From: an uncultured Candidatus Saccharibacteria bacterium | GTDB lineage: Bacteria > Patescibacteriota > Minisyncoccia > Phycocordibacterales > UBA1006 | Reading direction: 5' to 3' | Assembly (NCBI GenBank): GCA_964350165.1 | Contig: CAYGJA010000001.1 | Span: forward strand, 86,823 to 150,822 | Length of the DNA stretch: 64,000 nucleotides | Shown: positions 8,370 through 47,034 of the stretch, in pieces | Numbering within the stretch: position 1 is the first letter of the stretch | Layout of the letters: every line of letters starts with the position of its first letter | Position numbers and translations under genes: made by a program | Notes under the pieces: model-generated | What the model saw: only the letters and a program-made list of their open reading frames with translations | Databases searched by the model: none | Told to the model about the DNA's origin: nothing

Positions 8370-8403
8370 AAAAAATACCCAAATTAATATTTGGGTATTT
8401 TTT
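8370..8403. terminator. Intrinsic terminator downstream of the GNAT gene
   Basis: aaaaaataccc-aaattaatattt-gggtatttttt. Confidence 0.6.
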
Positions 8404-8977: not shown

Positions 8978-9550
8978 TTAAAAAGAAACTGCTCCCAGCA
9001 GCTCTTCTCTTCCTTTTTTCTTGTGAGCCGAGACGTATAGAATTTTTTGACCATCAGGCAATAGCTCTTCTAGTTTTTTCTTGAGAGCATGCAACTCTTT
9101 TTGGTTTAATTTGTCTACCTTGTTTACAGCTAATACAAAAGGAATATTCTCTGTTTGCAAGAAATCAAACATCTGCAAATCCAGTTCCGTAACACCGGCT
9201 TTAGCTCCTATTACCAGCACAACACTTCGATTGTCCCGAGGAGCCTCCGCCAAGTACCAGGTGATGAGATCTCGAAGCTTTTCTCGTTCTGTCCGAGAAG
9301 TTTTAGCATAACCATATCCCGGCAAATCAACCATATAAAAAGCATCATTTACTAGGAAAAAATTTACTGTTTTTGTTTTGCCTGGGGTTCCACTAGATTT
9401 AACCAAATCTTTTCTCTGCATCAACATATTCATCAAGCTAGACTTGCCTACATTAGAACGGCCGATAAAAGCAATTTGCTTTTTACCGTCGTGCAATATT
9501 GGCTGATCTGAGACAAGGCTTGTTATAAATTCTGCTGATACTACGTCCAT
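8978..9550 (-). CDS. engB: Ribosome biogenesis GTP-binding protein YsxC/EngB
   Basis: G1 motif GRSNVGKSS and the overall EngB pattern, including DLPGYG. Confidence 0.85.
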   Translation of the reverse strand: MDVVSAEFITSLVSDQPILHDGKKQIAFIGRSNVGKSSLMNMLMQRKDLVKSSGTPGKTKTVNFFLVNDAFYMVDLPGYGYAKTSRTEREKLRDLITWYLAEAPRDNRSVVLVIGAKAGVTELDLQMFDFLQTENIPFVLAVNKVDKLNQKELHALKKKLEELLPDGQKILYVSAHKKKGREELLGAVSF

Positions 9551-9552
9551 GT

Positions 9553-12007: not shown

Positions 12008-13182
12008 GACACTTCGCTATCTTTAGCTTTTTTCATCATACCACCAAGATGTTTGCTCGCATAACTATTGTCTCGCTGATAGCGAGACACCTGCAAGACA
12101 ATCCCAACCATGGAAAGAGTTATAAGGAGAGATGTTCCTCCATGACTAACAAAAGAAAGAGGTAGTCCGGTAAGCGGCATAAGTCCTAAGATCGAAGCGA
12201 TATTCACAAAAGCTTGCGACACAATCAAGATTACAATTCCAGCCACCAGAAGTCGCGTAAATTGATTTGGAGCCCTCGTTGCAATATAAAAACCACGCCA
12301 CAAAAACAAAAGAAAAAGGATGATCAAAACAACCGCCCCAACAAAACCAAGCTCTTCGGCCACCACAGCAAAAATAGAATCGCCAACTGGTTCAGGTAAA
12401 TATTGAAATTTTTGGCCACTGCGACCATAGCCACGACCCAAAAACTCTCCAGATCCCACCGTAATCAAAGACTGTCTGATCTGATAAGAAGAACCTGTTG
12501 GATCACGAGCCGGATCACTAAAAGTAAGGATACGATCAAGCAAATAAGGTCGCACAGCGATTAACGCCCCCAAACCCAACACCATAACAACACCAATGGT
12601 CCACATATGTCGGAAAGGGGCCCCAGCGAGCAAATACATACCAACTAGCGATGCCGCTATCACTAGAAATGTCCCCGTATCTGGTTGCACGAGCAATGCA
12701 ATCGCCGGCACCACAATAAATAAAAACAACGCCACCAAACCAAAACGTGGAGCTACTATTTTTTTACCAACAAAAGAAAGAAAAGCGGCCCAATACATGA
12801 CCATGGCAAATTTGAGAAGTTCGGCCGGCTGCAGTGTGGCAAAACCTAGACTAATCCAACGGCGCGCTCCACCATGAGAAAAACCAAGCCCGGGCACAAA
12901 CACCAAAAACGTAGCCAAAAGAGCAGTGATTGCGATGGGTAGAGCGTATTTTTCCCAAAATCGAAAAGGAATTCTGGCAAACAAAAAGGCTGCCCCCACC
13001 CCACCCACCAGAGCAAAGCCCAGCTGACTGATAATCATTCTCTGAAACAAGCTACTGTCTTTTGGGAGGACACTCAATGCCGCTGAGATAAAAACAAAAA
13101 TGCCTGACAAAACAAGCGCCCCCACGATTCCAAGCATGATGGGGTCCATCTGGTATTTTGTTTTTTTGGTTAAGGTCGACAT
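12004..13182 (-). CDS. ftsW: SEDS-family peptidoglycan polymerase FtsW/RodA
   Basis: 392 aa with about 10 TM helices, located between mraY and murG. Overlaps murG by 4 nt. Confidence 0.8.
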   Translation of the reverse strand: MSTLTKKTKYQMDPIMLGIVGALVLSGIFVFISAALSVLPKDSSLFQRMIISQLGFALVGGVGAAFLFARIPFRFWEKYALPIAITALLATFLVFVPGLGFSHGGARRWISLGFATLQPAELLKFAMVMYWAAFLSFVGKKIVAPRFGLVALFLFIVVPAIALLVQPDTGTFLVIAASLVGMYLLAGAPFRHMWTIGVVMVLGLGALIAVRPYLLDRILTFSDPARDPTGSSYQIRQSLITVGSGEFLGRGYGRSGQKFQYLPEPVGDSIFAVVAEELGFVGAVVLIILFLLFLWRGFYIATRAPNQFTRLLVAGIVILIVSQAFVNIASILGLMPLTGLPLSFVSHGGTSLLITLSMVGIVLQVSRYQRDNSYASKHLGGMMKKAKDSEVS

Positions 13183-13197
13183 GTCTTGTTTATTCTC

Positions 13198-14277
13198 CTA
13201 ACCAATCACAGAAATAATTATCCCAATAAAAGCCATGACCACAGAAGCCACCCAGTAACGCATAGTTACCTTATGAGAAGGCCAACCTAAAGCCTGGAAA
13301 TGATGATGTAATGGGGCCACCTTAAAAATACGCTTTCCTTTTCTAAATTTTTTAGACAAGATTTGTAAAAACGAAGACAAAGAAGTTGCAACCAAAGGCA
13401 AACCAATAATTGGCAAAAGCAGTGCCGAATGCGTAAGAAAGGCAATCAAAGCCAAGGCCAGTGTCAAACCAAGCATCCCAGTCTCCCCCATCCAAAAACG
13501 AGCCGGCGGAATATTGAACCAAAGAAATACCAACAAGGCGCCCACAATCACGGCACAGAGTGTGGCCATGTCTATCTGATTCTGAATAAAAGCAATCAAC
13601 CCATATGCACCAAACACAGAGATCAGCACCCCTCCGGAAAGCCCGTCGATACCATCAATTACACGGCTTGAAAAAGTAGCCAAAATAACCAACACAAAAA
13701 AAGGTATGAACCACAGCCCAATCTGAACATCTCCCACAAAAGGTACATTAATCATCGAGACATCAAGCTTGAAGTAGAACCAAAAAGCAAAGAGAATCCC
13801 AATCAAGGCAACAGCGTATACGCGTGCCATACGTGGTAAACCATGCGCAATCAAACCCATCTTGGCGGGGAAAATTTCCAACAAATCTTCTGCCAGTCCA
13901 AGCACCCCCCCAACAACCAAGGCCAGAATGGGTAGCAATGTTTGATTCCTGCTAAAAAAATTAAGCTCCTGCAAAAAATCGGTTGAAAAGAATTCTGCCA
14001 ACAAAAAGATAACCATCATGGTTAACAAAATTGTTACCCAAATGATCACCCCTCCCACTCTAGGAGTAGAAAGCTCAGTTTCTTTGTCATGCAGGGACTT
14101 GTATTCTGCGGTGATTGTTGGGTTCGTGCCCTCGTCAGTTCGAGCAACTCGTTTCCATAATTTATATTTATAAAAGAAATCAGTAAATCTTGGCGTAATC
14201 GCTATTCCAATCAAAACAGCAATCAGGGCTGGTAAAAAAATTTTGAGAACATTAAAAGTCATGGGGTTATTATACAA
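13198..14277 (-). CDS. mraY: Phospho-N-acetylmuramoyl-pentapeptide transferase (MraY/WecA superfamily, likely MraY)
   Basis: Polytopic membrane protein with a VIDGIDGLSGG (DGxDGL) motif; the MraY call rests on dcw synteny upstream of ftsW-murG. Confidence 0.7.
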   Translation of the reverse strand: MYNNPMTFNVLKIFLPALIAVLIGIAITPRFTDFFYKYKLWKRVARTDEGTNPTITAEYKSLHDKETELSTPRVGGVIIWVTILLTMMVIFLLAEFFSTDFLQELNFFSRNQTLLPILALVVGGVLGLAEDLLEIFPAKMGLIAHGLPRMARVYAVALIGILFAFWFYFKLDVSMINVPFVGDVQIGLWFIPFFVLVILATFSSRVIDGIDGLSGGVLISVFGAYGLIAFIQNQIDMATLCAVIVGALLVFLWFNIPPARFWMGETGMLGLTLALALIAFLTHSALLLPIIGLPLVATSLSSFLQILSKKFRKGKRIFKVAPLHHHFQALGWPSHKVTMRYWVASVVMAFIGIIISVIG

Positions 14278-14282
14278 AATAA

Positions 14283-15320
14283 CTAAAAGTTAAATTGCAG
14301 CCACTGCTCTAACGCATCCAAAATAATCTGAGCGTCCACAAAACGACCATCATAAGTAGAGCCCATAACTACAATTGCGACTTGTTTTCCTTCACCGAGA
14401 TCGGCCACCAGTGCCAAATTTCCTCCTGCCAAATCAGTAAAACCAGTCTTGGAAAAAATAATATTTTTATCTTTTTGCAGTAATGGATTCGTGTTTTTTA
14501 TTACTATCTCTTTGTCACCAAAATTATAAGTAGCACTTGGTTTGACTGATTCACGAGCAATCTCTGGATACAGATCCATGACCCACCACAAAAGTTTTGC
14601 AACATCTGCGGGACTACCATAAGACCCACTGAGCCGTTCGCTTTCATCAAAACCAACCGCATCTACAAAAAAAGAATGCTCCAGTCCAATAGTTCGCGCT
14701 CGGTCATTCATCGCTCGCACAAAAGTATTAACCACGGTTGTTTCGTCGGCGCTATTCTTACCAACGAGAGCGCTCGATACTGATTCTTGTACGGCATAAG
14801 CCATATCATTCGAAGAGCTTTGCATCAAAAAACTAATTGCTTGCTTTAATGGAACTCGCATCCCAACGGCTAGCTGTTGATCTCCTTCTTGATCAATAGC
14901 GTCTTGGGAAACAAAAACAGTCTCAACCAGATCTGCGTTTTCCATGGCAGTAATTGCGGTCATTGTTTTTGTAAGTGAGGCCAACGGTCTCTCTGTCTGC
15001 CCCTCTCGCTCAAACAAAACACGCTCCCCTTCACTGTCTCGATATTCGACATACATCGAAGAAGAGAGCAAGCCATCTTCATTAAAATAACGGTCAAGTG
15101 ACGTCAAAAAAATCTTTTCCGTGGTCGTACTTGTTTTTAATAATTCAATTTCTGAGTCGGCCAACATGTCTTGGGCGCCCAAAACCTCCCCAGAGCCTGC
15201 CTCTTCTTTTCTTTCAGCCAAAAAAGGATCTTGTGGTGAGGCAACCTCCACCACAACAACACCCATAACAACAATCACAAGCAGGCTCAAAATTATGTAT
15301 TTGGTTCGCTCAAAATCCAT
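14283..15320 (-). CDS. D-alanyl-D-alanine carboxypeptidase (PBP5/6-like, S11)
   Basis: SxxK (SLTK), SxN (SSND) and KTG motifs in the expected order, with an N-terminal TM. The start is taken at the MDFERTKYIIL Met. Confidence 0.75.
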   Translation of the reverse strand: MDFERTKYIILSLLVIVVMGVVVVEVASPQDPFLAERKEEAGSGEVLGAQDMLADSEIELLKTSTTTEKIFLTSLDRYFNEDGLLSSSMYVEYRDSEGERVLFEREGQTERPLASLTKTMTAITAMENADLVETVFVSQDAIDQEGDQQLAVGMRVPLKQAISFLMQSSSNDMAYAVQESVSSALVGKNSADETTVVNTFVRAMNDRARTIGLEHSFFVDAVGFDESERLSGSYGSPADVAKLLWWVMDLYPEIARESVKPSATYNFGDKEIVIKNTNPLLQKDKNIIFSKTGFTDLAGGNLALVADLGEGKQVAIVVMGSTYDGRFVDAQIILDALEQWLQFNF

Positions 15321-15325
15321 CTGGC

Positions 15326-15889
15326 TTACTCTACCATATCCACCGTTTGTCCGTGAAGTTGTTCGCGCAAAGTGGCGTGAACAGATTCCCAATCGGGTAA
15401 TTCTTGAACTCTCTGTATTCCCAAATTAGCCAGGGCCTCGATCGTAGGCTGATACACTTTGGCTGAAGACATTTGCAACATGCCTCGTATCGATAGTTTT
15501 CTCAAAGTAAAATAACTATTTACTCCACGAACAAAATCAATCTCTGCCTTGTTTGCCCCGTCCAGATAGCAAATAGTAGCCAATGTTTCCAATGCAGCAG
15601 AAGAAAGCGGGGTCACCTGTTCTAGGGCTTGCCACTCAGCTGCCAATTCAGAAAATTCAGGAGCAACCGCTAACTGCAAGCTGTTTTCATCAGACAAGAT
15701 AACTAGACCAAGCTCTCGCAATTTTGTTCGAGCCTCAGCCAGAGCAAGGGGAAAAATATCAGCACCAAATTGCTCTTCCAGCACACTCATTTTTATTTCA
15801 TCGCCGGCCGTAAACAAGATACTCACCAAAGCAGCTATTGCTCGCTCATTTGAAGTAATTGGTTCCCATTCTTCATTCATGTCTTCCAT
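15326..15889 (-). CDS. scpB: Segregation and condensation protein B
   Basis: 187 aa tandem-winged-helix pattern immediately downstream of scpA. Confidence 0.7.
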   Translation of the reverse strand: MEDMNEEWEPITSNERAIAALVSILFTAGDEIKMSVLEEQFGADIFPLALAEARTKLRELGLVILSDENSLQLAVAPEFSELAAEWQALEQVTPLSSAALETLATICYLDGANKAEIDFVRGVNSYFTLRKLSIRGMLQMSSAKVYQPTIEALANLGIQRVQELPDWESVHATLREQLHGQTVDMVE

Positions 15890-15893
15890 AGTA

Positions 15894-16673
15894 TCAGGAA
15901 TCTAGTCGCGTAATAATAATTTCTGAAAAAATACCAACCTGCTCGCAGCTAGCGTCTTTCTGCTTAATCATCTCCAAGGCCGCCAAAAAACTACCGATCG
16001 GAGCGTCTTTGGGGTCGTAATCTTCTTCTTGTTCAGCCGAAGAGCCACCAAAACCGAGAGAATTTACAATATCAGACAAACGAAGACGCACCCCAGGCCT
16101 AGTAAGTCTTTCTTTGATTGCCCCCATAATAGAAGCCAGCGCCATTCTTGGGCGGATGGTCTTGGTTGCTTCTTTTTTAATTGTCTGCGTCATTTCTTTG
16201 GCAATTTCGAGCAGTGGTTTTATTTTTTGCAATAACACGTATGCAGACAGAGTCGCCTCTGGAACGTAACCAGTAACTGCCTTGATCACCGGCTTTCGGG
16301 TTAAAAAAGGATGCGGGTCATTTGCACTAATTTTGGGCAATTGTTCCTGAATCAATGCGTACAATTTTACTCGGTCAACCAACTGCACCAAGGCTCCCTC
16401 TGCCTCATCATCCGCATCAACCTCTGGAAACAGGGCCTTGGACTTTACATACACCAACGTGGCCGCCACATTAAGGAAATGCGTAGCATGATGCAGGCTC
16501 ATATCTGACATCGACCGAAAATGTTCAAGGAAACTATCCGCCACCGAAGCCAGACCCACTTCGTTGATGTGTAAACGACGCTTGCGTACTAGTTGCAACA
16601 AGAGCTCTATGGGGCCAACAAAATTTTCTGAAGCAAAGTGAAATGACGAACTCATGCTCCCATTATCCCCCAC
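15894..16673 (-). CDS. scpA: Segregation and condensation protein A (kleisin)
   Basis: N-terminal FVGPIELLLQLVRKRRLHINEV matches the ScpA consensus. Confidence 0.8.
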   Translation of the reverse strand: MGDNGSMSSSFHFASENFVGPIELLLQLVRKRRLHINEVGLASVADSFLEHFRSMSDMSLHHATHFLNVAATLVYVKSKALFPEVDADDEAEGALVQLVDRVKLYALIQEQLPKISANDPHPFLTRKPVIKAVTGYVPEATLSAYVLLQKIKPLLEIAKEMTQTIKKEATKTIRPRMALASIMGAIKERLTRPGVRLRLSDIVNSLGFGGSSAEQEEDYDPKDAPIGSFLAALEMIKQKDASCEQVGIFSEIIITRLDS

Positions 16674-16705
16674 CCTGACCTTTTTTCAAAACAAACACCA
16701 CCAAC

Positions 16706-16734
16706 TTGACAGTAATCATATTAAAAAATAAACT
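16706..16734 (+). promoter_or_regulatory. Sigma70-like promoter TTGACA-17-TAAACT
   Basis: Read directly from the sequence. It lies about 10 nt upstream of the 26-codon ORF at 16745. Confidence 0.4.
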
Positions 16735-16744
16735 AAGCTCGTTT

Positions 16745-16825
16745 ATGAAAAATTTTTGGTCAATTTTCTACATTATTTTTGCTCTCGTCCTCATGGGTCG
16801 GGCTGGTTCTAATGTTGTAGAATAA
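16745..16825 (+). CDS. Candidate 26-aa hydrophobic peptide (MKNFWSIFYIIFALVLMGRAGSNVVE)
   Basis: ATG-initiated ORF framed by a promoter and an intrinsic terminator, forming a stand-alone unit. It is below the ORF-track length cutoff and has no obvious SD. Confidence 0.3.
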   Translation: MKNFWSIFYIIFALVLMGRAGSNVVE

Positions 16826-16857
16826 ATAGATCAAATACTATCCAATCTCCAAATTAG

Positions 16858-16895
16858 AAACCGGCCTCTCCCCAGAGGTCGGTTTTTGCTTTGGA
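16858..16895 (+). terminator. Intrinsic terminator
   Basis: accggcctct-cccc-agaggtcggt followed by ttttgcttt. Confidence 0.55.
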
Positions 16896-16950
16896 ATTCA
16901 AAGCAAAATAGTTCTTTAAAATCAAAAATACAAAAAAACCGCGGGCCACG

Positions 16951-18192
16951 GTGACGGCCACTATTATTATGGAAAAGATTCTACGTTTACTAGATCCGGC
17001 CATGAACGGCCAGTCATTGTTTGTTGTGGGTTTTGATGGCCAAAATCCTTGGCATGCAACCGTTGATCCCATAACCCCGCATGATATTTTGTTGTTAACC
17101 CAGGGGTTTCAGCAGCAGATTATTGCTACGCCTCATATTGGAAGACACTGGGCGAGCAACTCAGCCTATCCGCTCGCTGGTGTAAAAATTTATGACTTCA
17201 CTGGGAATATGGCTGACGCAGACAAAGAAGATCAACCAGAGTTTGCAACCTTTAATGGTGAAACCATTCGGGTCACAGACCAGAAGCGAGTACTCAGCCC
17301 TTACCTGGAAATTAGAAAAAATGTGCTTATAGTGAGACAGCACGCTCAACTTTATGTTTCTAGTGCACATCATCGTGCCAAAAAGAAGCTTTTCCCTGAA
17401 GCAATTCATCTTGATACAGAGCTCTATGCTCATTCGGTAGCCGAAAAAGTTATTGGAGTTTTATGGAAGAATCAAGAATATCTTCTGCAGGGTTATGAGC
17501 AATCTATCTTTCCCCGCTGGGTTGAGGCTGATGGCACGGTGCGTCATGTTCGTGTCGACGACACAGCAACTCCAGCCAATTTGTTTCGGTTGAAAGAATC
17601 TCATAATGAAATGATACTTCATGACTCGAAGCGGTCTGAAGAAGGGCCACTCGTGATTAAGGAGGTTCTCATCCTTCTTGACGTTGTCCGTCAGATTTAC
17701 GACTCGGGCTTGATCAACAGAAGAGTCGCTGATGTATATCACGTCAGTGGTATCAGCATGCTCAGTTACTGCAAAGACAAGTCATTGAGAGCAGTTCTCG
17801 ATCGAGGGTATAAAATACTCCGCCGAAACTTCCCTGAACTGCCAGAGCATGTGAGGTTGTCTCTACTACCAGGCTCATTGTTTGGGATGCTCCCTACAAA
17901 AATGGACCCGGCGGACTATGTGAACGCAATTCGAGAGGCACTGAGGCTAAAAGCAGAGATTAACCGTCTTGATGCCAGTATTTCTTCGAACCGCGTGGGG
18001 CGCGACGGCTTGATTGCTGAGAAAAAAACCAAGAGATTCGCGCTCATGAATACGTTAGGCAAAGCTAAAAAAGTCACGCGTCCACTCGTGTCCCAATATG
18101 ACGGCGACAGGGCACGGGTGGACGATGAAGCTTGGGAATTGGTCCAAGAGTTGTCGTTCCGTGATCTTCGCGAAATGGCAAAAAAACTATGA
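16951..18192 (+). CDS. Hypothetical protein (about 410 aa)
   Basis: Long ORF beginning with GTG at 16951, or with the ATG at 16969 (MEKILRL). No recognisable motifs. Confidence 0.5.
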   Translation: MTATIIMEKILRLLDPAMNGQSLFVVGFDGQNPWHATVDPITPHDILLLTQGFQQQIIATPHIGRHWASNSAYPLAGVKIYDFTGNMADADKEDQPEFATFNGETIRVTDQKRVLSPYLEIRKNVLIVRQHAQLYVSSAHHRAKKKLFPEAIHLDTELYAHSVAEKVIGVLWKNQEYLLQGYEQSIFPRWVEADGTVRHVRVDDTATPANLFRLKESHNEMILHDSKRSEEGPLVIKEVLILLDVVRQIYDSGLINRRVADVYHVSGISMLSYCKDKSLRAVLDRGYKILRRNFPELPEHVRLSLLPGSLFGMLPTKMDPADYVNAIREALRLKAEINRLDASISSNRVGRDGLIAEKKTKRFALMNTLGKAKKVTRPLVSQYDGDRARVDDEAWELVQELSFRDLREMAKKL

Positions 18193-27779: not shown

Positions 27780-29156
27780 ATGGATATCCGCCTCTACAAC
27801 AGTCTGACAAAAAAAATAGAGTTATTCACTCCGCTCAAACCAGGCAAAGTAAAAATGTATCACTGTGGACCAACCGTCTACGACGATGTCCACATTGGCA
27901 ATCTGCGGGCTTTTTTCTTGGCGGACATTATTCGCCGGGTATTTGAATGGAATCAATACGAAGTCCTTCAGGTCATGAATATTACAGATGTTGGCCACCT
28001 CTCTGATGACGGCGACCATGGTGATGACAAAATGACCCGCGCCCTTGTTCGAGAGAAAAAAACCATCACCCTAGAATCCATGCTCGAAGTAGCCACCAAA
28101 TACAAAAGTCGTTTTGTGGAAGACCTCGACAGTATGAACATCCAGCGACCCCACCATTTGCCGAGAGCCAGCGAACACATTCAGGAAGACATCGCAATGA
28201 TAGAAAAATTAGCCAAAGCTGGTCACACCTACGAAACAGATGATTCTGTATATTTTGATACGCAAAGTTACCCAGACTATGGTCAACTAGGCCTCGCCCC
28301 CCTTGATGATAATCATTCTCGAACTGGAATAGATCAAGATAAAAAAAGCCCTCGCGATTTTGCTCTATGGAAAAAGAACAACAATCTCGGCTGGGAAAGC
28401 CCTTGGGGCAAAGGATTCCCTGGTTGGCATATCGAATGCTCGGGAATGTCTACCAAATTCCTGGGAAATCATTTTGATATTCATACCGGCGGCATCGATC
28501 TCCTCCCCACTCACCATAACAACGAGATTGCACAATCAGTCTGCAGTACCGAAGAACCCTTTGTGAATTATTGGCTACACAACGAACATTTGGGACTCAA
28601 AAATACAAAAATGTCTAAATCAACCGGGAACAGTATCACTCTGCGCACCCTAGCAAAAGAAGGTTTTTCTGGTCTTGATTATCGCTATTGGTTGCTTCAG
28701 AGCAGTTATCGTAGCCAAGTAGATTTCTCATTAGAAAATCTGACGGCTGCCAAAACCGCCCGAGAACGTCTCCAAAAACACGCAACAGCCGAGAGTCTCG
28801 CCGAAATCCCAGACGCCTCTCCCTATTGGCAAAAATTTACAGATGCTATCAACAACGACCTAGGCACACCCGAAGCTCTTGGCATTGCCTGGGAAGTAGC
28901 CAAAGACAAAAAGCTCTCAGATAATTTTCGTTCTTCTCTTTTGTTAAAATTCGACGAAGTACTTGGTGTTTTTGAAAATGACCAAGAAGCAGAAGCGCTA
29001 GAGATTCCAGAAATTGTACTATCCTTGGCCGAAGAGAGAGAAGAAGCTCGAGCTACGGGCGACTGGGATCAAGCTGATTTTTTGCGGACAGAAATCAGAA
29101 CCTATGGCTACACCATCGCCGACGGGCCAGACGGTACTACGTTTGAAAAAATCTAA
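27780..29156 (+). CDS. cysS: Cysteinyl-tRNA synthetase
   Basis: MYHCGPTVYDDVHIGN (HIGH region) and KMSKSTGN (KMSKS). Confidence 0.9.
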   Translation: MDIRLYNSLTKKIELFTPLKPGKVKMYHCGPTVYDDVHIGNLRAFFLADIIRRVFEWNQYEVLQVMNITDVGHLSDDGDHGDDKMTRALVREKKTITLESMLEVATKYKSRFVEDLDSMNIQRPHHLPRASEHIQEDIAMIEKLAKAGHTYETDDSVYFDTQSYPDYGQLGLAPLDDNHSRTGIDQDKKSPRDFALWKKNNNLGWESPWGKGFPGWHIECSGMSTKFLGNHFDIHTGGIDLLPTHHNNEIAQSVCSTEEPFVNYWLHNEHLGLKNTKMSKSTGNSITLRTLAKEGFSGLDYRYWLLQSSYRSQVDFSLENLTAAKTARERLQKHATAESLAEIPDASPYWQKFTDAINNDLGTPEALGIAWEVAKDKKLSDNFRSSLLLKFDEVLGVFENDQEAEALEIPEIVLSLAEEREEARATGDWDQADFLRTEIRTYGYTIADGPDGTTFEKI

Positions 29157-30796
29157 TATTCTTGCTGGAACTCAGCGATGAACTGGCTTCCCTTGCCAAG
29201 CCCTTCTGACTCAATGCGCAATTCTCCAGCGTGCGCCTTTACGATTTGTTTTGCCAAATACAATCCCAAACCAGAACCTCCTGTGTTTGTTTTTTTGCCA
29301 GCATCACCGCGACTAAACTTTTGAAATAGCTTAGCAATGGTCTCTTTGGTAATCCCTTTGCCATTGTCTGCAACAGTAAGCTCAATATATTTTTTGTCTT
29401 CTTTTTGTCGCTTTTGCAATATTACGTTTATCTCTCCCCCTCTGTCGGTATATTTGATGGCATTGTCCACCAGGTTAACCACCACCTGTCGTAGTTTGAC
29501 TTGATCCCCCTTGAGGGCATAACGCCCAGGCTGTTTCATTTCGAAATCAAGACGTATGCCTTTCTGTTTTGCGTTTATTTTTTGTTCATCGACGACACTC
29601 TGCACCATAGAAGCCAAACTGAAAGTAATCATTTCATATTGGAGCCCCCCTTGCTCTATCTTGGAAACATCCAACAAATCAGTAATTATTTTGGCAAGAA
29701 TTGAACTGGACTCAAAAATACGGCGCACCGGCTCGTGCACCCTTTTTGTGATTTTCCCAAAAGAACCTTCCAGGATCATGGAAGAATACCCCTTGATAGA
29801 AGTAAGCGGTGTTCGAAGCTGATGAGAGGCCAATGACAAAAATTCAGTCTTTAGTTCATCTAATTTTTGTAGCTCCTTGTTTACTTCTTGCAGTTTTGTT
29901 GACAGCTTTTCAACGTCTTGCCTTTGTTCTATTTCTTTATTTACTGATCGAATCAACAACAAACCAACGGCCACCGTAAAGACGAACGACCCAATCCCAA
30001 TGGTTATGTCGGCAACGGTTCGTGCTACTGACAACAGTTGATAGAAGCTAATGATCCAGATAGCAAAAACCAGCACCTGAGTAAGAATCAATTTGAGATT
30101 GAACAGCTGATAGCGCAAAATCGCAACCGCAATCACAACCACCATAACCATAACCGTGATTTGAGACATCCAATTAAGCGCAAAAATTCCAAAAAAGGGC
30201 AACACCAAATTAGTAACAAAGCCAGTAAGAGCCGCAGCCAAAGTGCCTATAATAATAAAAAGTGCTTGTTTTTTTGTTTTGGTGTCTTTGTTTTGAGCGT
30301 AAAACTGCAAAAGATACAGATATCCGAAACCAATAACAACAGTCGCAAAAGAAGAATAAATAATTGAAGGCACCAGGCCAAAAAAAATTGCATTTTCTGC
30401 CCCAATACGTGGCTCAACACCAGTAATCAGTAAATTGGGTGCAAAGGCCAATATTGCAGAAACTGCAAAAAAACTAGTCACAAAAATTTGTTTTGTTTTT
30501 TTGACTCGTTTTTCAAAAAAAGAAGCAGTGAAATTAAAAAAAGTAAGCGGTACAAACGTAAAAGTTCCATAAAGAAATTTAGAAAACAGCAACACCTGAT
30601 CTGGCTCTGTTGCTGTTCTAAACAAAAACATGGACAACACCCAAGCATCAATTGCCAGTGCCAAGAAAAAATAGTGCTTATTCAGTCGTGCTTTTTCTTT
30701 GTTATTGAAATACACCAAAAAGCCAAGCAGGCTATTGGCTAAAACTACTACAATAAGGGCGATGCTGATGATGTCGATACTGTTACTAGGGCTCAC
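29153..30796 (-). CDS. Sensor histidine kinase with a polytopic N-terminal membrane domain; no response regulator adjacent
   Basis: H-box LASHQLRTPLTSIKGY, N/G1/G2 boxes (NLVDNAIKYT, GSGLGL), and about 8 TM helices N-terminally. Confidence 0.8.
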   Translation of the reverse strand: MSPSNSIDIISIALIVVVLANSLLGFLVYFNNKEKARLNKHYFFLALAIDAWVLSMFLFRTATEPDQVLLFSKFLYGTFTFVPLTFFNFTASFFEKRVKKTKQIFVTSFFAVSAILAFAPNLLITGVEPRIGAENAIFFGLVPSIIYSSFATVVIGFGYLYLLQFYAQNKDTKTKKQALFIIIGTLAAALTGFVTNLVLPFFGIFALNWMSQITVMVMVVVIAVAILRYQLFNLKLILTQVLVFAIWIISFYQLLSVARTVADITIGIGSFVFTVAVGLLLIRSVNKEIEQRQDVEKLSTKLQEVNKELQKLDELKTEFLSLASHQLRTPLTSIKGYSSMILEGSFGKITKRVHEPVRRIFESSSILAKIITDLLDVSKIEQGGLQYEMITFSLASMVQSVVDEQKINAKQKGIRLDFEMKQPGRYALKGDQVKLRQVVVNLVDNAIKYTDRGGEINVILQKRQKEDKKYIELTVADNGKGITKETIAKLFQKFSRGDAGKKTNTGGSGLGLYLAKQIVKAHAGELRIESEGLGKGSQFIAEFQQEY

Positions 30797-30805: not shown

Positions 30806-32035
30806 TTATATCATCATGCTGGCTAGTCTTTTTTTAACTAGCTGAGTAACCTTGTCTATTTTTTCTTCGGTAACAGTATCAAAATAATTCTGAAAATCAG
30901 CCACTCGGAACCCAAGCTTTTCTCCGATGGTCTTTATTTCTGCTACGTGTTCAACACTTGCACGATTGATAACATAGTGCCCTTTGTGGTTATTGGCAGC
31001 CAAAGCCAAGAGCTCGGCCATACAGCAAAAATTATCCTCTCTGTCTTTTAGACCAAAACGAAAATGTGTCACCACGCCCGGGGTACGAACCGCGCCAGCC
31101 TCGAGCACCAGGACATCAGATTGTCGATGAACTTCTTCAGAGATATCAGTTGGTTGCGTGTCATCAATATAAATCGAGCCAGGAGTGGTTCTGTCGGTTG
31201 TGATCAGCGCTTCGGAAGCATTAGTTGCAGTAAAGATGACAATTGCTTGCTTAGATTCAGAGACATCGGAGGAAACAGTGTACGTACCGCTTGGCCTAAT
31301 CTCTAGGAGTTCTTTTTGCAGTTGTTTTACTTTGTCTATTTTTCTCTCTAAATCAATCAATCGAATATTTGTGGCCCCTGTTGTTGCGAGGTATTTGGCA
31401 ACAGTAGACCCTACCGATCCTGCAGCGCCCACAATTGCCAAAGGCATCGTATTTCTCTCTTGCTGCAAAGACATTCTTTCCAAAATTGCTTCGTAATTTT
31501 GGACAACATTGAGAGCGGTATAAGCATGTCCGGTTGTAACATCGACACCCAAATCTAACAAGTCTTGGCCTCCTTTTGATAAAGATGCTGTGTATCCGGC
31601 CAGGCCTACTATTTTTGCACCCTGCTTAGATGCATGACGCACAGCGGACCGAATCTGCTTGATTGCCCTAGGTCTATCATCCAAAAGATCTTTGGCTGTC
31701 ATGGGAACAGTGATAACACAGCCGAGAACCTCCTTGCCATCAACCGTGGATCTGAGTCCTGTTATTTCTGAAGCAGTAACTGGCCAAAAAAAACGACGAA
31801 TCAAAATACGCATTATTTTTTTTGGAATTTTTCTAAAAAAAGGAAACTTTCTATAAATCTCAGCATAATCACGAGGGTGCCCCAAAAAACAAAAATGGTA
31901 TTTTTTTAATTTTTTGGGCACCAAAAAATTAGGCAACAATTTAATTAACAAGTCTTTAAAGAGGCCATAAATTTGTTTCAATGTTTTCATAAATACCAAA
32001 TAATTACTTTCTAAAAACTTGAAGTATCTTGGCAT
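30806..32035 (-). CDS. AAR-like (acyl-ACP reductase family) NAD(P)-dependent oxidoreductase with a basic N-terminal extension
   Basis: The blocks HFCFLGHP, GLAGYTASL, TTGHAYTALNV and the Rossmann AIVGAAGSVGSTVAKYL align with cyanobacterial acyl-ACP reductase blocks (FGLIGH, LGGFTSI, TTGNTHTAY, VVGATGDIGSAV). Overlaps the downstream acyltransferase gene by 32 nt. Confidence 0.5.
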   Translation of the reverse strand: MPRYFKFLESNYLVFMKTLKQIYGLFKDLLIKLLPNFLVPKKLKKYHFCFLGHPRDYAEIYRKFPFFRKIPKKIMRILIRRFFWPVTASEITGLRSTVDGKEVLGCVITVPMTAKDLLDDRPRAIKQIRSAVRHASKQGAKIVGLAGYTASLSKGGQDLLDLGVDVTTGHAYTALNVVQNYEAILERMSLQQERNTMPLAIVGAAGSVGSTVAKYLATTGATNIRLIDLERKIDKVKQLQKELLEIRPSGTYTVSSDVSESKQAIVIFTATNASEALITTDRTTPGSIYIDDTQPTDISEEVHRQSDVLVLEAGAVRTPGVVTHFRFGLKDREDNFCCMAELLALAANNHKGHYVINRASVEHVAEIKTIGEKLGFRVADFQNYFDTVTEEKIDKVTQLVKKRLASMMI

Positions 32036-32864
32036 TTGCCTGCTCGATGTCTTTCTGATGCAATTCCAGGGCGGCAGTTCGGCTGTCTAACAAAGAGGCG
32101 GTAAACAAATCTTCTGGATAAAAAGGTGCTTTTACTTCAAATTTAATGCTAGTCTTTCTGAAAAAGAAAGATCGTAAAGTTAACGGGCAAGAAAGAACAA
32201 CTCGTATTGGAACTACGGGGCGACGTGAATAATAAGAAAGCACGGCTGTTCCGGGCAAAACCTTGGTCACTACGCCCAAGGGGTCTATTGTTCCAGAAGG
32301 AAAAATGATCAAAGAATGACCAAAGTCTTTTAATAATTCAATATGGTTTGCCAACTTGATACGATACGGCAAATGTTTATTTTTTCTATCAAAAGCACAT
32401 GCTCCGCAAATATCAAAAACCCAACCGCCGTAAAATATCTTTTTTAATAAATTTCCCTTGGCAATTTCTGTTTTATAGAATTTTGATTCGAAAGTAAAAA
32501 ATCGAACTGGAAAATGTCGCGAAAAAAAACCAAAAATGCTTGGTATTAAGAGAATATCAATCTCTGAAAAATGAGAAGCTGCAAAAATAACGTTCCGTGA
32601 CTCTTTTTTAAAAGTTTCATTCGGATCTTCTATGGTTGCACGCAACCACCATCGCAGAAAAAAACCAAGAGGGTATGCAAGATATTGCACAAAACGCACC
32701 AACAAAAAGAAACCCTTTCTTTGCGAAACACTGGACCCTTGTCCGGAAGCATTATCCGCAAAATCTACTTCTTCTCGTTGTGACTCTCCACCCAAAAGAG
32801 CACCTCCTCCTGCTGTCTTGAGAACCGGTGACCATTCTTGTTTTATGTCTTTAGGATTATGCAT
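32004..32864 (-). CDS. Lysophospholipid/glycerol-3-P acyltransferase family protein (PlsC/LPLAT)
   Basis: Acyltransferase motifs I (AASHFSEID, HxxxxD), III (FPSGT) and IV (VVPIRVV). Confidence 0.65.
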   Translation of the reverse strand: MHNPKDIKQEWSPVLKTAGGGALLGGESQREEVDFADNASGQGSSVSQRKGFFLLVRFVQYLAYPLGFFLRWWLRATIEDPNETFKKESRNVIFAASHFSEIDILLIPSIFGFFSRHFPVRFFTFESKFYKTEIAKGNLLKKIFYGGWVFDICGACAFDRKNKHLPYRIKLANHIELLKDFGHSLIIFPSGTIDPLGVVTKVLPGTAVLSYYSRRPVVPIRVVLSCPLTLRSFFFRKTSIKFEVKAPFYPEDLFTASLLDSRTAALELHQKDIEQANAKILQVFRK

Positions 32865-32872
32865 ACAGTGTT

Positions 32873-33559
32873 TTATATTCTTGATAATAAACGCCCTCTT
32901 TGTTTTTCAGTAAAATTGCCCGCCCAATCGGCAACATTTGCAGGAAAGAGAATGTAGAAAATTTTCTGAATAGTTCTGAAGGAAAATCCTATTTGTTCCA
33001 AATGATGGATCACGTGTCGTGAGCAGTTGTTTAAAAGAACGTGATATTTTTCAACTCGAGAATGATTTACAACATTTGTGCGCTTTGCCAAACTTTTAAA
33101 AAGCTGAATACGTTGTTTGCGGGATAATCGCAAAGGGGTGGTAAAAACCGGCTCACTGGTGCCCACGTTTTGGCGCACATGAATCAGGTCTTCGGCAGTA
33201 CCCCAAACATACTGCAATCTATTTGTTCCCAAAAAAGTTCTAAATGAGAATGTTTGGCCCACCAGACAGCTCAGCTCAGGTGAAGCAATAATAATCCTCT
33301 CTTTTATCTTGAAGCCAACCATTACATGTGCGACTCCGCGTGCAAAAAAAGGAACCGTATACAGAAAGGCTTCGGCAACATCATGAAGAGAAAAAGTAAA
33401 ATCAGCCCAGCGTTCTTCTGGCTTATCCTCAACTCCTTCTGGATAAGAAAAATCTCTAAGATTTTCTATTTTCCAAAACGAACCAGTATTCACCACCCGA
33501 GCCAGGTTACGAAAACCAGCTTTCCACTTATCTCTGTTGTTTTTTATTTCGTCTGACAT
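32873..33559 (-). CDS. Hypothetical protein, first gene of the acyl-lipid operon; YHVLLNNC motif, possibly DUF4105/Lnb-like
   Basis: The start is taken at MSDEIKN, because the ORF-track N-terminus would translate the terminator hairpin. No TM or signal peptide; the family call rests on an unverified motif resemblance. Confidence 0.4.
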   Translation of the reverse strand: MSDEIKNNRDKWKAGFRNLARVVNTGSFWKIENLRDFSYPEGVEDKPEERWADFTFSLHDVAEAFLYTVPFFARGVAHVMVGFKIKERIIIASPELSCLVGQTFSFRTFLGTNRLQYVWGTAEDLIHVRQNVGTSEPVFTTPLRLSRKQRIQLFKSLAKRTNVVNHSRVEKYHVLLNNCSRHVIHHLEQIGFSFRTIQKIFYILFPANVADWAGNFTEKQRGRLLSRI

Positions 33560-33570
33560 AAAAAATAACA

Positions 33571-33599
33571 AAAAAGACGGCATTAAGCCGTCTTTTTTT
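33571..33599. terminator. Intrinsic terminator downstream of dnaJ
   Basis: aaaaagacggc-attaa-gccgtcttttttt. Confidence 0.6.
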
Positions 33600-33719
33600 A
33601 AGAGCAAATTAAATTAACGTTAATCCCACCGGCGTAACTACGCCCGGGACCAGAACGAAAACTTAACTTACTACTTATATCCATATACATATTATAACAC
33701 AGAGGGGTGTTTTGTAAAG

Positions 33720-37230: not shown

Positions 37231-37776
37231 ATGAGTAGAAAAAACTCCTACAAGAAAAAACTTCTCGACATCCTGCAACGCAAACGAGCCAGCTCCACCG
37301 AAGACCTTGTTGAAGAGGCCCTTACGGCTTTCCCTGCAAAAAAACAAGACACTTCGTTGCGTTATCGTTTTCAGAGGACGTTAAAACAACTTCAGGAAAA
37401 CAATCTGGTAGAAATACGAGAAACAGAACGATCACGTTTTGCTCGTCTAACCCCTCACGGACAACACACGCTCCGCACCATGTCCCTAGGAGACAACCAG
37501 AGCCTTACCTCTATGCGCTGGGACGGTTATTGGCGCATTGTTATCATGAATATTCCAGAAGACCGCAAGGACGAGCGAGACGCTTTTCGATATCTTCTCA
37601 AAAAAGCGAATTTTGCTTGTGTGAAAAATTCTGTCTGGGTTTCTCCTCACCCACTAGAACATTTGCTAGAAAATCTCAAAAAAGATTTTGGTTTTACTGA
37701 TGAAATCTTCATTATTCTTTCCAACAAAATAGACCCTGTCAGTGAAGAGATTTTTATTCGATCAATCAGAGATTAG
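37231..37776 (+). CDS. PaaX-family-like transcriptional regulator (N-terminal wHTH + WDGxW...SVWVSPH domain)
   Basis: WDGYWRIVIMNIPEDRKDERDAFRYLLKKANFACVKNSVWVSPHP resembles the PaaX middle-domain signature (WDGxWxLvxxxiPExxRxxRDxLRxxLxxxGFgxLxxSvWisP). Divergent from grpE. Confidence 0.45.
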   Translation: MSRKNSYKKKLLDILQRKRASSTEDLVEEALTAFPAKKQDTSLRYRFQRTLKQLQENNLVEIRETERSRFARLTPHGQHTLRTMSLGDNQSLTSMRWDGYWRIVIMNIPEDRKDERDAFRYLLKKANFACVKNSVWVSPHPLEHLLENLKKDFGFTDEIFIILSNKIDPVSEEIFIRSIRD

Positions 37777-42012: not shown

Positions 42013-43389
42013 CTAGCTGTCAATGTTCTGATAAATAATGTCTATTTTTTCAAATTTTTTGGGAAGTTGTTTTATCCAAATCGGCTTTATTTCTGCTTCG
42101 GCTGACTGGATTTCGTCACGTTCTCGCAAAACAGAAGCAAAATCACGCTGCTTTACACCAGAAACGAGACGCTTCACTATCAAATCATCTACTTGCCAAC
42201 GCACCGTAGCACTACCAGAAACCTGTAGATTGGTGAGTTCTTGAGTAGAGGTGGTCACGACATAATCAAGATCAGAAAGGTTTGTGATCATTAATTTTGG
42301 CAAAGTGATTTCGTCAAAACCACCACGTGCCAGTAGAGCGGTTTCTATTTCATCTTTGCGCACCAACAACATAGACACATCGGCCTTGAGCACCGCTCGC
42401 AAACCACTTTCTGGCTGTGGATCAAAGGCGATTTCTTTCCAGGTGTATTCTTCGGTATCTGGCAAAACCATGTAGCCTTCTGGAATACGGTAGGCAACTT
42501 CATTGCGACTTTGATCAAACACCTCTTGACGCAAAGCGAGCTCGAGCCCTCCTTGGTCTTCGTCCTCAACAGCTGGACGCTGTCCGATAAAACCTCCCGA
42601 TAGCGGACCGACTGAACGAGCATAAAAACCTTCAAATTTGGGACCGCCTCGAAACCCAGGTATAACAAAATCGGTGGGCTCTTGATTGTATTCCGGACCA
42701 GGATTATCGGCATAGACAGTTGCCTGAATCGAACCAGGAACAAGTTCTCCGTTAACCAGGGTTTGTCCCGGAACAGTGATTCCGCCCCCCTTGGCTAATT
42801 TGTATATTTTCCCAGAAGAATCTTCGAAGCGTGTTTCTTCACGAAGCTTTTGAGCAGAAGTGGAGAAATTGTTGTATACGACAATTTCTCCAGAGGCTTT
42901 TTCGCTCACGTCGACCAAGGGGGCGTCAGCCAAACTTTGGCTGGCTTCTACCGGAAAAACAACCGTGTCGTAATCAAGCTGATCTTCTACGCTGTTTTCG
43001 TACAAAGCCAAAACAGTATCTACCGCAATCACCTGCTCCTTGAGTGTGATTCGAAGCGAAGCTCGAGCAGAAGTTAGAGATATTACATAGCCCAAGACAA
43101 TCACCAGCACAAACGCAAGACCCCAGAGTGTTTTTCCGCCAGAAGCAGCTCTTTTTTCTCGAGAACTAACCACCAGAGGAGATCCTGTTCGCATGCGACG
43201 CGAAGAAGATGTTCTTGGTATTGTCTTCTTTTTTGGTTTGGTAAAAGTCGCGCGTTCTTCGGATTCAGAGTCACTGGCTCGAACCACTCGACGACGAGAC
43301 ACAACCGAGGAAGTACTTCGGACCGGTCGCCTAGCCTCCCTCTCTCGAGTAGGTAAATTAATATCCTGAATTTTTCTTCGGTCTGACAT
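42013..43389 (-). CDS. Hypothetical single-pass membrane protein with a basic disordered N-terminus
   Basis: R/S-rich cytoplasmic N-terminus, one TM (LWGLAFVLVIVLGYVISL) and about 340 aa of extracytoplasmic domain. The start is taken at MSDRRK. Confidence 0.5.
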   Translation of the reverse strand: MSDRRKIQDINLPTREREARRPVRSTSSVVSRRRVVRASDSESEERATFTKPKKKTIPRTSSSRRMRTGSPLVVSSREKRAASGGKTLWGLAFVLVIVLGYVISLTSARASLRITLKEQVIAVDTVLALYENSVEDQLDYDTVVFPVEASQSLADAPLVDVSEKASGEIVVYNNFSTSAQKLREETRFEDSSGKIYKLAKGGGITVPGQTLVNGELVPGSIQATVYADNPGPEYNQEPTDFVIPGFRGGPKFEGFYARSVGPLSGGFIGQRPAVEDEDQGGLELALRQEVFDQSRNEVAYRIPEGYMVLPDTEEYTWKEIAFDPQPESGLRAVLKADVSMLLVRKDEIETALLARGGFDEITLPKLMITNLSDLDYVVTTSTQELTNLQVSGSATVRWQVDDLIVKRLVSGVKQRDFASVLRERDEIQSAEAEIKPIWIKQLPKKFEKIDIIYQNIDS

Positions 43390-43410
43390 ATATCTACAGT
43401 GTAGCAAGTT

Positions 43411-44565
43411 TTATAACAATGAGGCTACATAAAAATGAATGGCATGTTCGGAAACCACTCCAGCACCATCAACAACCAGAGTGTTGTCACGAAAATCAAA
43501 AAAAGTAACGGTTGCTTCTGCTGGCAAAGCGCCCTGGACTGTTTTTTCAATCATGGAGCGCTCTATGATTTGTTCAAAAGAATCCGAAATACTATACACC
43601 GCCCGATCAGGAAAGGTGGTCGCTTGTGTAATCTGCATAAGGACTTCCTGCAATTGTCTTCGCCAAATGTCAGCCACAACCCGACACTGCTCGGTGATTT
43701 GTTGTTGCAACGACGCCTCTAGTCGGTTTTGGAAAAATAATTCTAACAAATGCGTGGCTCGGTGATGGTCTTTTCCCACAACCGATTGAATCTGCTCGAT
43801 GATTGATTCGATTCCAATCTGAATATCTCTTTTCTCGATAGCACCCTTGTTCGTGTGCAACACAACAGTGGTGCGCCCTTCATCAATAAAGACAAATAAC
43901 GTACTGAGCTGTTTGTGTTCTGTAAATTTGTCGAGGGCTGAATATAACAAAGCGTCGTGCGTAGTGTGCGTTATCCGATGATGAGGTAATATTTTTCGAA
44001 GCGTGTTCTCGATTGCTTTTTTCATCATTTCGGCTACCAAATCATACTGAAGGGTTAGGGATATTTCTTCGGCGCGCTTGCCAAAAGGCTCGAGAAAATG
44101 ATAGCCGTTTAATTTTTCGTGAATAGGAGTAATTCCTAGTAGCACCTGTTCGTGGTCTTTGTTGTGTTGCGCTGTGGTTTTGTATTCTGAAAGCGCACGT
44201 TTGGTCATTTTTTCTTGCTGACTCTTGGTGTACTTGATTGGTCGATGAGAAGACTCGATCACATCTTTCCAGAAAGAACCTCCCCAAGGGGCGTCATATA
44301 TTACGGTGATTTTGGTTATGTTTTCTAGGTGACGATTGTCTATACGAGAAAAAACTCTTTCTAGCGCTGTGGCATAGCGACTGACTCGATGTCCCTGATC
44401 ATGAATATCTGCTTGATCTACAAGCTGCTGTGCCTGCAATTCATTTTTTATAAGTTTTTGTTTTTTGTTCAATACCGAAAGCACGGCCACGAGAACGCTC
44501 GATCGCCCAACCTCGACCACTAGATGTTTGTCTGGTCCCTTTTTTTGGAGTTGCCAACTTTTCAC
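43411..44565 (-). CDS. Hypothetical protein; possible actin-like ATPase fold (FtsA/PilM-like), very tentative
   Basis: The N-terminal KHLVVEVGRSSVLVAVL resembles the phosphate-1 motif of ASKHA ATPases; the call rests only on that motif. Confidence 0.3.
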   Translation of the reverse strand: MKSWQLQKKGPDKHLVVEVGRSSVLVAVLSVLNKKQKLIKNELQAQQLVDQADIHDQGHRVSRYATALERVFSRIDNRHLENITKITVIYDAPWGGSFWKDVIESSHRPIKYTKSQQEKMTKRALSEYKTTAQHNKDHEQVLLGITPIHEKLNGYHFLEPFGKRAEEISLTLQYDLVAEMMKKAIENTLRKILPHHRITHTTHDALLYSALDKFTEHKQLSTLFVFIDEGRTTVVLHTNKGAIEKRDIQIGIESIIEQIQSVVGKDHHRATHLLELFFQNRLEASLQQQITEQCRVVADIWRRQLQEVLMQITQATTFPDRAVYSISDSFEQIIERSMIEKTVQGALPAEATVTFFDFRDNTLVVDGAGVVSEHAIHFYVASLL

Positions 44566-46581: not shown

Positions 46582-47034
46582 TCAGGGGCTACTTACCTTT
46601 ACGGCAATAATTATCTGATCACCATTGCTGGTATCGAGAATATACCCCTGATTGGGTCGTATTCCCGACCCTCTCCACCAGAAGTTAACATCCTCCCCAA
46701 ACGGTCCGATTACCTTCAAGAGAAACGTGTCTTGTTTTCTGCCCAAAATGTCCAGTTGAATTTTGACGTTTTTGTAAGCCAGAAGGCAAAAAAAATTTGC
46801 CCAAAGCTTGAGGTTCTCAACACGTTTGCTGGTTTTTATATAAAAACCAGAAGGGCGATCATTCGTGTCTTCCAAAAAAATTCCAGCCAAAAACGAATAC
46901 TTTACCCCTGAAACAGCCTTTGGACGCAGCAACTCAGACCTGTTGTCGGTAACGGGAAGGAAAACGTATCCGTTTTCTCCGAATAATTTATCCAGCAAAG
47001 GCTTTAACGTTGCAAAAATCTCTTGTCTCGTCAT
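46582..47034 (-). CDS. Hypothetical protein, paralog A of a tandem pair (N-terminus MTRQEIFATLKPLLDKLFG)
   Basis: Shares its first about 17 codons and about 90 nt of 5' region with the gene at 47195-47665; the bodies have diverged. Confidence 0.5.
   Translation of the reverse strand: MTRQEIFATLKPLLDKLFGENGYVFLPVTDNRSELLRPKAVSGVKYSFLAGIFLEDTNDRPSGFYIKTSKRVENLKLWANFFCLLAYKNVKIQLDILGRKQDTFLLKVIGPFGEDVNFWWRGSGIRPNQGYILDTSNGDQIIIAVKVSSP

Follow-up and report, generated by a model that had tools for sequence, protein, structure and literature searches.

What could a thioester-reductase-like enzyme and a PlsC-like acyltransferase be doing side by side in a bacterium of a lineage without fatty-acid synthesis? 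Patescibacteria (candidate phyla radiation, CPR) are described as lacking that pathway, and how they build and regulate their membranes is an open question (PMC7242380). The case at hand is a cassette of four closely packed minus-strand genes in a 64,000-nucleotide stretch, hereafter the window, of contig CAYGJA010000001.1 from an uncultured Candidatus Saccharibacteria bacterium. Flanked by dnaJ (ending at 33720) and the convergent cysS (ending at 29156), the cassette encodes, in order of reading, a DUF4105/Lnb_N protein (gene 1, 33559 or 33607..32873), a PlsC/LPLAT-family acyltransferase (AT, 32864..32004), an NAD(P)-dependent thioester-reductase-like protein of the AAR/PigE-N/TAD superfamily (RED, 32035 or 31990..30806) and a HisKA_7TM sensor histidine kinase (30796..29153). 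Gene 1 and AT are separated by 8 nt, and the RED stop lies 9 nt from the kinase start. A preliminary description had presented the first three genes as an acyl-lipid module; its three open reading frames (ORFs) are all present, and the motifs it cited were all recovered by translation of RED, AT and gene 1. The kinase lies just beyond the interval described there and is RED's most conserved partner. We propose, with a probability of about 0.42, that the cassette is a lipid-acyl processing module under sensor-kinase control. Judged from sequence comparison, the best explanation is that it is the Patescibacteria form of a widespread core made of RED and a sensor kinase, usually of the HisKA_7TM type. 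In the Patescibacteria form the PlsC-like AT would normally precede RED, and a DUF4105 acyl-enzyme appears to have been inserted in the window species and its closest relative.

The translated RED contains HFCFLGHP, GLAGYTASL, TTGHAYT and AIVGAAGSVGST. Pfam matched only its Rossmann part, as PF01488 (Shikimate_DH). In NCBIfam, residues 98-403 match the PigE N-terminal reductase region (NF053554, model positions 56-360 of 837) at 2.8e-40, with 138.5 bits against a cutoff of 850. The match to the cyanobacterial AAR model, TIGR04058, is weaker (1.8e-15; 57.1 bits against a cutoff of 449.7). A RED profile built from 31 homologues retrieved PigE (1e-32), AAR (4e-22) and a carmabin TAD (1e-18) from the PDB, with GluTR marginal. 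The AlphaFold2 (AF2) model of RED (pLDDT 94.9) found TAD and AAR chains first in Foldseek (E = 1e-20 to 1e-15, TM-score 0.66-0.80) and only generic Rossmann proteins after them. The family-invariant F-C-C-[ML]-A-E, which reads FCCMAE in RED, aligns on F-A-C294-F-A-E of AAR and places RED Cys338 (codon 31022-31024, minus strand) at the position of the catalytic C294. The register of this alignment was confirmed by the AAR C294S mutant chain 6jzz, in which the segment reads FASFAE. Cys338, the Rossmann GxGxxG motif GAAGSVG (within 31403-31438, minus strand), TTGH and an HPR motif are all invariant in the 31 homologues. On these comparisons, RED is a member of the AAR/PigE-N/TAD thioester-reductase superfamily with an intact predicted active site. 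The preliminary description of the gene as cyanobacterial-AAR-like holds for the superfamily, the catalytic Cys, the Rossmann motif and the predicted fold, but not for AAR orthology, the PigE reductase domain being closer. Orthology to AAR was ruled out by the 57.1 bits scored against 449.7, and orthology to PigE by the 138.5 bits against 850 and by the end of the protein after the reductase domain.

Comparison with the three characterized relatives shows what RED shares with each and where it departs. AAR (TIGR04058; PDB 6jzq, 6jzu) has the same predicted fold (Foldseek matches 6jzy and 6jzq, E ~1e-15 to 1e-16), the catalytic Cys (C294), TTG(H/N) and GxGxxG, and the chemistry of an acyl-S-enzyme plus hydride is likely common to both. 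In contrast, identity between the two is ~20%, AAR has an NADPH-type Thr-Ala-Arg where RED has Asp228, and RED lies beside genes for an acyltransferase and a sensor kinase; the general annotation, which included no search aimed at ADO, revealed no ADO-like neighbor. The hosts of RED also appear to lack acyl carrier protein (ACP) (PMC7242380; ACP not found at the Patescibacteria loci). By sequence, RED is closest to the reductase domain of PigE/TamH (PDB 4ppm), enzymes of prodigiosin and tambjamine synthesis. This domain converts thioesters to aldehydes and has the Cys in common with RED; experiments support thioester reduction by the PigE N-domain, which is homologous to AAR (PMC8341465). In PigE a fused pyridoxal phosphate (PLP) aminotransferase uses up the aldehyde, whereas RED has neither an aminotransferase domain nor such a neighbor. 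The top structural matches are the TAD chains of the carmabin nonribosomal peptide synthetase (NRPS; PDB 9e4s and 9e4x, E = 8e-20, TM-score ~0.7), which have an invariant Cys beside the nicotinamide and an Asp-type, NAD-preferring Rossmann site (bioRxiv 10.1101/2024.10.28.620694). TAD, however, is located at the C-terminus of NRPS modules and is a proposed amide maker. RED occurs outside NRPS clusters, either on its own or fused with AT, PilZ or SRPBCC. Two features are specific to the RED clade, a conserved N-terminal helix (DLxxxxLP) that is not in AAR and Asp228 at the end of strand beta-2. By the general Rossmann rule, Asp228 suggests that RED prefers NADH over NADPH.

The position of the RED start codon bears on the junction with AT. 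The preliminary description reported a 32-nt AT/RED overlap, which exists if RED starts at ATG 32035 and gives way to a 13-nt gap if it starts at ATG 31990. RED homologues are ~385 aa long, and their alignment begins at Met16, encoded by ATG 31990. We take this ATG as the probable true start. As homologues align from Met16 and the AT–RED gap in a 77%-identical relative is 30 nt, the overlap is probably an artefact of choosing the start of the longest ORF. The N-terminal extension relative to AAR, put earlier at ~45 aa, shrinks to ~30 aa with the Met16 start.

AT scores 30.7 bits against PF01553 (cutoff 23) and only 29 bits against TIGR00530 (1-acylglycerol-3-phosphate acyltransferase; cutoff 102.95). 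Its translation contains HFSEID, an HX4D motif (motif I; H98-F-S-E-I-D103), together with FPSGT (motif III) and VVPIRVV, and it matches PlsC of PDB 5kym with E = 1.5e-4. NHxSxxD and FPeG are conserved across 40 RED-adjacent AT homologues. By these measures AT is a weak member of the PlsC family. Its first 55 residues (32700-32864, minus strand) form a low-complexity, Gly/Ser/Gln-rich N-terminal extension of ~55 aa that is clade-specific. Most AT homologues are ~230 aa long and lack it, and the proteins of the 77% and 61% relatives (283 and 282 aa) are similar in length to the window AT.

The kinase scores above cutoff for PF16927 (49 bits), HisKA (PF00512, 54.8 bits) and HATPase_c (PF02518, 102.6 bits). 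It carries SLASH325QLRTP with the H-box His325, NLVDNAIKYT, DNGKGI and GGSGLGL; members of the kinase family share His325 as well as the N, G1 and G2 boxes. At least seven helices are indicated by hydropathy and by a low-confidence model (pLDDT 54.5, from a 3-sequence alignment). The transmembrane region has conserved polar and aromatic residues, and a word-based homologue search with the N-terminus found 2 proteins only. The HisKA_7TM sensor is membrane-embedded and without known ligand (PMC5847659).

The conservation of the cassette was examined in 76 genome loci with RED relatives of 29-47% identity, mostly from metagenome-assembled genomes (MAGs) of Patescibacteria, whose ORFs were annotated with profiles built from the window proteins. 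The counts rest on ±8 kb flanks and longest-ORF calls, and for many MAG records the taxon label is the depositor's and may be imprecise. In 59 of the 63 loci with downstream room (94%), the gene that directly follows RED on the same strand encodes a HisKA_7TM kinase, and the stop and start codons of the two genes often overlap. AT lies directly upstream of RED in 39 of the 63 loci with upstream room and within 8 kb in 13 more. This arrangement, and the existence of AT–RED fusion proteins, bears out the earlier coupling of AT to RED. The kinase pairing is the strongest: the kinase adjoins RED in 59/63 loci, AT in 39/63, and DUF4105 is absent outside the closest relative. Stand-alone receivers occur in 8 loci of the Patescibacteria set, adjoining the cassette in most, and L087 and L090 have them too. 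In some Patescibacteria, RED is followed by two or three 7TM kinase paralogues in tandem (L017:9149-14188, L049:9157-12461). In three loci (L002, at 4601-5848; L005; L020), AT and RED are separated by an additional kinase-like gene in inverted orientation; in L002 its precomputed Pfam annotation is without a HATPase_c domain.

Gene 1 was previously listed as an unknown protein. Its YHVLLNNC motif is present, but Pfam places it in PF13387 (Lnb_N, the former DUF4105) with 40.3 bits, above the cutoff of 22.2. The family is a permuted NlpC/P60 acyl-enzyme domain, represented in Bacteroides by the lipoprotein N-acyltransferase Lnb (PMC11573676, PMC12994826). H94, E111 and C195 of gene 1 are spaced like the catalytic residues of Lnb and TseH, a likeness of spacing only, without structural overlay (PMC11573676). 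A PDB sequence search with the protein gave chance-level matches only. Lnb shares with gene 1 the PF13387 domain and the His…Glu…Cys spacing, but it has five transmembrane helices that anchor a periplasmic catalytic domain (~398 aa), whereas gene 1 appears soluble. The gene 1 protein of ~228-244 aa has no visible hydrophobic segment or signal peptide in its sequence; since it is of ~228 aa and lacks both, it cannot be Lnb itself. Within the cassette, gene 1 was found only in the window's own contig and the 77% relative (L081/L082). Among profile-annotated ORFs it was found neither in the 61% relative (L083), where dnaJ–AT–RED–kinase is otherwise collinear with the window, nor in 73 other loci. 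This distribution indicates a recent insertion. Gene 1 is plausibly a soluble stand-alone domain, another acyl-handling enzyme recruited in one lineage.

An exhaustive profile search with RED returned 3,693 cluster representatives, 844 of them at E ≤ 1e-30. Among the top 150 representatives, 23 have extensions of >100 aa. These 23 include five AT–RED fusions (P0139, P0144, P0147, P0154, P0202) with one more that is partial, and at least seven PilZ–RED fusions, several of them with canonical RxxxR and DxSxxG motifs for binding cyclic di-GMP (c-di-GMP). The AT–RED fusion P0147 (L092) is followed by a HisKA_7TM kinase, and in Nitrospira the gene for a HisKA_7TM–GAF kinase comes directly after that for a PilZ-like–RED protein. 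Reductase and PlsC-like acyltransferase are likewise combined in ElbD, the myxobacterial multidomain enzyme of ether-lipid synthesis, which resembles the AT–RED fusions in this respect. ElbD differs from RED in that its reductase is an SDR-type domain accompanied by adenylation and carrier domains, and no sensor kinase is known to take part.

In an Omnitrophota MAG (L089, JBDRLN010000064.1), a long same-strand cluster at 7616-18148 begins with a helix-turn-helix gene, AT, an SRPBCC-RED fusion and RED. A 344-aa protein with a weak PAPS_reduct match, a HisKA_7TM kinase and a receiver follow, and then two ketosynthases, ACP and a FabA/ApeI-like dehydratase. The two-component pair of this locus sits in the middle of an apparent operon for type II synthesis of lipids or polyenes. 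In a diderm contig (L090, 6751-11030), the order is ACP, RED, a HisKA_7TM-GAF kinase, a 110-aa protein and a stand-alone receiver, with overlapping junctions, and the cassette is inserted between ribosomal protein S6 and SSB–S18–L9. RED followed by the kinase is also found in L088 and in Margulisiibacteriota L075, and adjacency of RED and a histidine-kinase gene spans at least four named phyla. A gene for a FadL/TodX-type outer-membrane channel, a type that serves hydrophobic compounds, lies directly upstream of a PilZ(-like)–RED gene in L086 (5185-6627), and in L095 (2-496) FadL is followed by a canonical PilZ-RED and a kinase. The presence of FadL in these two unrelated contigs hints at a link to the uptake of exogenous fatty acids. 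RED carries an N-terminal extension of 420-500 aa, with a HisKA_7TM kinase following, in L075:2370-4781 (Margulisiibacteriota MAG) and L077:60-2726 (unclassified MAG); the extensions gave no Pfam match and may be an unrecognised sensory domain. Around the AT–RED genes of loci L058 and L071, the neighbors offer loose lipid hints only, a FAR-like NAD_binding_4 gene and a secreted lipase/LCAT-like protein.

These observations can be assembled into a working model. Family membership, intact catalytic motifs, gene order and fusions were read directly from the sequences; from them we infer the substrate of RED, its product (aldehyde, alcohol or transferred acyl), its cofactor preference and the direction of control, kinase over enzyme. 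RED would take an activated fatty acyl group onto Cys338, and in relatives with ACP beside RED the donor would likely be a carrier-protein thioester. Reduction of the acyl-enzyme by NAD(P)H would then give a fatty aldehyde, and AT would acylate a lysolipid-type acceptor from the same acyl pool. The kinase would detect a membrane or lipid cue and tune this acyl handling post-translationally, through a stand-alone receiver or by direct contact. In other phyla, the PilZ domain fused to RED could provide a comparable regulatory input through c-di-GMP. The AT fusions, the ACP adjacency and the ketosynthase and FadL neighborhoods all support a joint action of RED and AT on activated fatty acyl groups. 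The cross-phylum adjacency, the PilZ input domains and the nearby stand-alone receivers argue that RED and the kinase are one functional unit.

Several points weigh against a kinase-controlled acyl-processing module. No response regulator is encoded within the 64-kb window. An ACP gene is missing from the window and from the 8 kb on either side of every Patescibacteria cassette, and Patescibacteria are reported to lack both ACP and fatty-acid synthesis (PMC7242380). The acyl donor in Patescibacteria is therefore the main weakness of the model. The tie to the 7TM sensor is not absolute, since the kinase after PilZ–RED in L095 has a different, non-7TM sensor region and L058 and L071 (Planctomycetota and Acidobacteriota) have AT–RED without a kinase. 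Aldehyde formation by RED is not guaranteed, since a non-reductive reaction has been proposed for the related TAD domain (bioRxiv 10.1101/2024.10.28.620694). The genes grpE-dnaK-dnaJ often lie upstream of the Patescibacteria cassette, and part of the Patescibacteria synteny could reflect conserved housekeeping gene order.

The tight RED–kinase adjacency, wide across phyla, would also fit a signal synthase and its receptor. RED would then turn an acyl thioester into a hydrophobic signal (fatty aldehyde or alcohol) that the adjacent kinase detects, with AT and PilZ tuning production, a reading that we consider doubtful. In its favor, the HisKA_7TM sensor is embedded in the membrane with no ligand assigned to it (PMC5847659) and has conserved polar and aromatic residues there, and the characterized AAR-family enzymes pass reactive aldehydes straight to a partner, namely ADO (PDB 6jzu) or the aminotransferase domain of PigE (PMC8341465). 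However, the PilZ domains and 420-500 aa extensions on RED and the nearby receivers fit a regulated output at least equally well, the L095 kinase is not of the 7TM type, and a diffusible signal leaves the AT fusion unexplained. The analogy is to CqsA/CqsS and LqsA/LqsS, where an autoinducer synthase gene adjoins a gene for a multi-pass sensor kinase. In DesK/DesR-des, a membrane-sensing kinase controls a lipid-modifying enzyme. All three resemble the cassette in coupling a lipid-acyl-processing enzyme gene to a membrane-embedded histidine kinase. They differ from it in using other enzyme families (PLP acyltransferase, desaturase), other sensor folds and DNA-binding regulators, whereas the receivers associated with the RED cassette are stand-alone domains. 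A broader form of the idea, which we regard as equally speculative, is that RED and the kinase make up a phylum-spanning lipid signalling device in which the kinase directly reads a membrane-soluble aldehyde or alcohol made by RED. RED would act in it on scavenged or carrier-bound acyl groups, and c-di-GMP through PilZ, or acyltransfer by AT, would gate the step. If true, such a device would give host-lipid-dependent Patescibacteria a sensor and effector for fitting membrane building to the host lipid supply.

Somewhat less probable still is that RED serves mainly in signalling, as a co-sensor that would touch the kinase directly and inform it of the cytoplasmic state of acyl thioesters and/or NAD(H), together with c-di-GMP where PilZ is present. 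The RED–kinase link is kept even where the sensor domain of the kinase differs, the input-type domains PilZ and SRPBCC are fused to RED, and the DLxxxxLP helix, which AAR does not have, sits between the fused domains and the catalytic core. Against this, the invariant catalytic Cys and the full cofactor site argue for real turnover, and the AT fusions and ACP/ketosynthase neighborhoods indicate metabolic flux.

The preliminary description had proposed a dedicated pathway in which DUF4105, AT and RED make an unusual lipid (wax ester, ether or alcohol-derived), which would leave the kinase incidental. All three belong to acyl-handling enzyme families (PMC11573676, PMC12994826), and a single promoter/leader precedes their closely packed genes both in the window and in L081. 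The combination of reductase and PlsC-like acyltransferase recalls that of ElbD. As a three-gene unit, however, the set does not hold together among relatives, gene 1 being syntenic only in the 77% relative and missing from L083 as well as from 73 other loci. Neither AT nor DUF4105 comes near the kinase in conservation beside RED, and the neighbors include no recurrent wax synthase or AGPS-like enzyme for ether bonds. Wax-ester or ether-lipid synthesis is possible but without specific support, and we judge the three-enzyme pathway very unlikely. The absence of any functional unit, with a housekeeping PlsC, an unrelated dehydrogenase and an unrelated sensor held by conserved small-genome gene order, is strongly disfavoured: grpE-dnaK-dnaJ, aminoacyl-tRNA synthetases and ribosomal proteins do recur nearby, in line with conservative gene order, but RED–kinase adjacency reaches 94% against at most 28/73 loci for the commonest housekeeping neighbor family, the pairing recurs in unrelated contexts (Nitrospira, Omnitrophota and others), and AT–RED gene fusions exist.

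A literature search, including COG5322, HisKA_7TM, Patescibacteria and Nitrospira, found no description of the RED clade, of the RED–histidine kinase pairing or of the PilZ fusions. The component families are known and their conserved wiring appears to be new. The cassette is one of few lipid-related gene sets that recur across Patescibacteria, and it is wired to a membrane sensor kinase; through it, lipid scavenging and homeostasis in these organisms become open to concrete tests. The studied branches of the AAR superfamily are three, serving alkane synthesis, prodiginine/tambjamine amines and NRPS termination. A fourth branch, widespread and linked with c-di-GMP and two-component signalling, would extend the enzymology of the superfamily as well as the known outputs of bacterial signalling.

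Upstream of gene 1, the minus strand carries a compact array of candidate transcription signals. A predicted sigma-70-type promoter with an extended -10 (TTTACA-16-TG-TATAAT, 33691..33718) matches 11/12 consensus positions and lies just past the dnaJ stop. It is followed by a long, very stable hairpin of ~75 nt (~33677-33600) and by a perfect intrinsic terminator (33598-33570) with a 12-bp stem and a T run, which ends 10 nt before the gene 1 start codon. The element at 33570..33677, of which the hairpin is part, has a minimum free energy of -51.5 kcal/mol, with z = -7.7 against shuffled sequences. Because the terminator falls within the longer, TTG-started ORF, gene 1 most likely starts at ATG 33559, as the preliminary description had it, and not at 33607. 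The promoter is conserved in L081 (77%) and L083 (61%) and the structured element in L081; the promoter-plus-terminator layout is also present in L083. Conservation of the leader does not reach the 45% relative L006, where only the terminator looks similar. Rfam gave no match in the whole window at gathering thresholds, and for the leader at E ≤ 10 only sub-threshold matches, none near the gathering score. In other loci, the terminators that precede the cassette resemble the usual ends of genes lying upstream. Taken by its layout, the element at 33718-33570 could be a small RNA gene or a read-through, transcription-attenuating leader of the cassette.

The remainder of the window is housekeeping in character, with genes for ATP synthase, aminoacyl-tRNA synthetases, MurG/FtsW/MraY-like proteins, ScpA/B, DnaB, RecR and RpoA. 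For six window ORFs, 150-464 aa long, Pfam gave no match at E ≤ 1e-5; they lie at 42013-43407, 43411-44565 and 46582-47034 on the minus strand and at 16951-18192, 2529-3221 and 4087-4878 on the plus strand. At 37231-37776 (plus strand), divergent from grpE, lies the gene for a 181-aa protein that has a PaaX_M (Cas2-like) domain; the 77% relative L081 has this gene at the same position.

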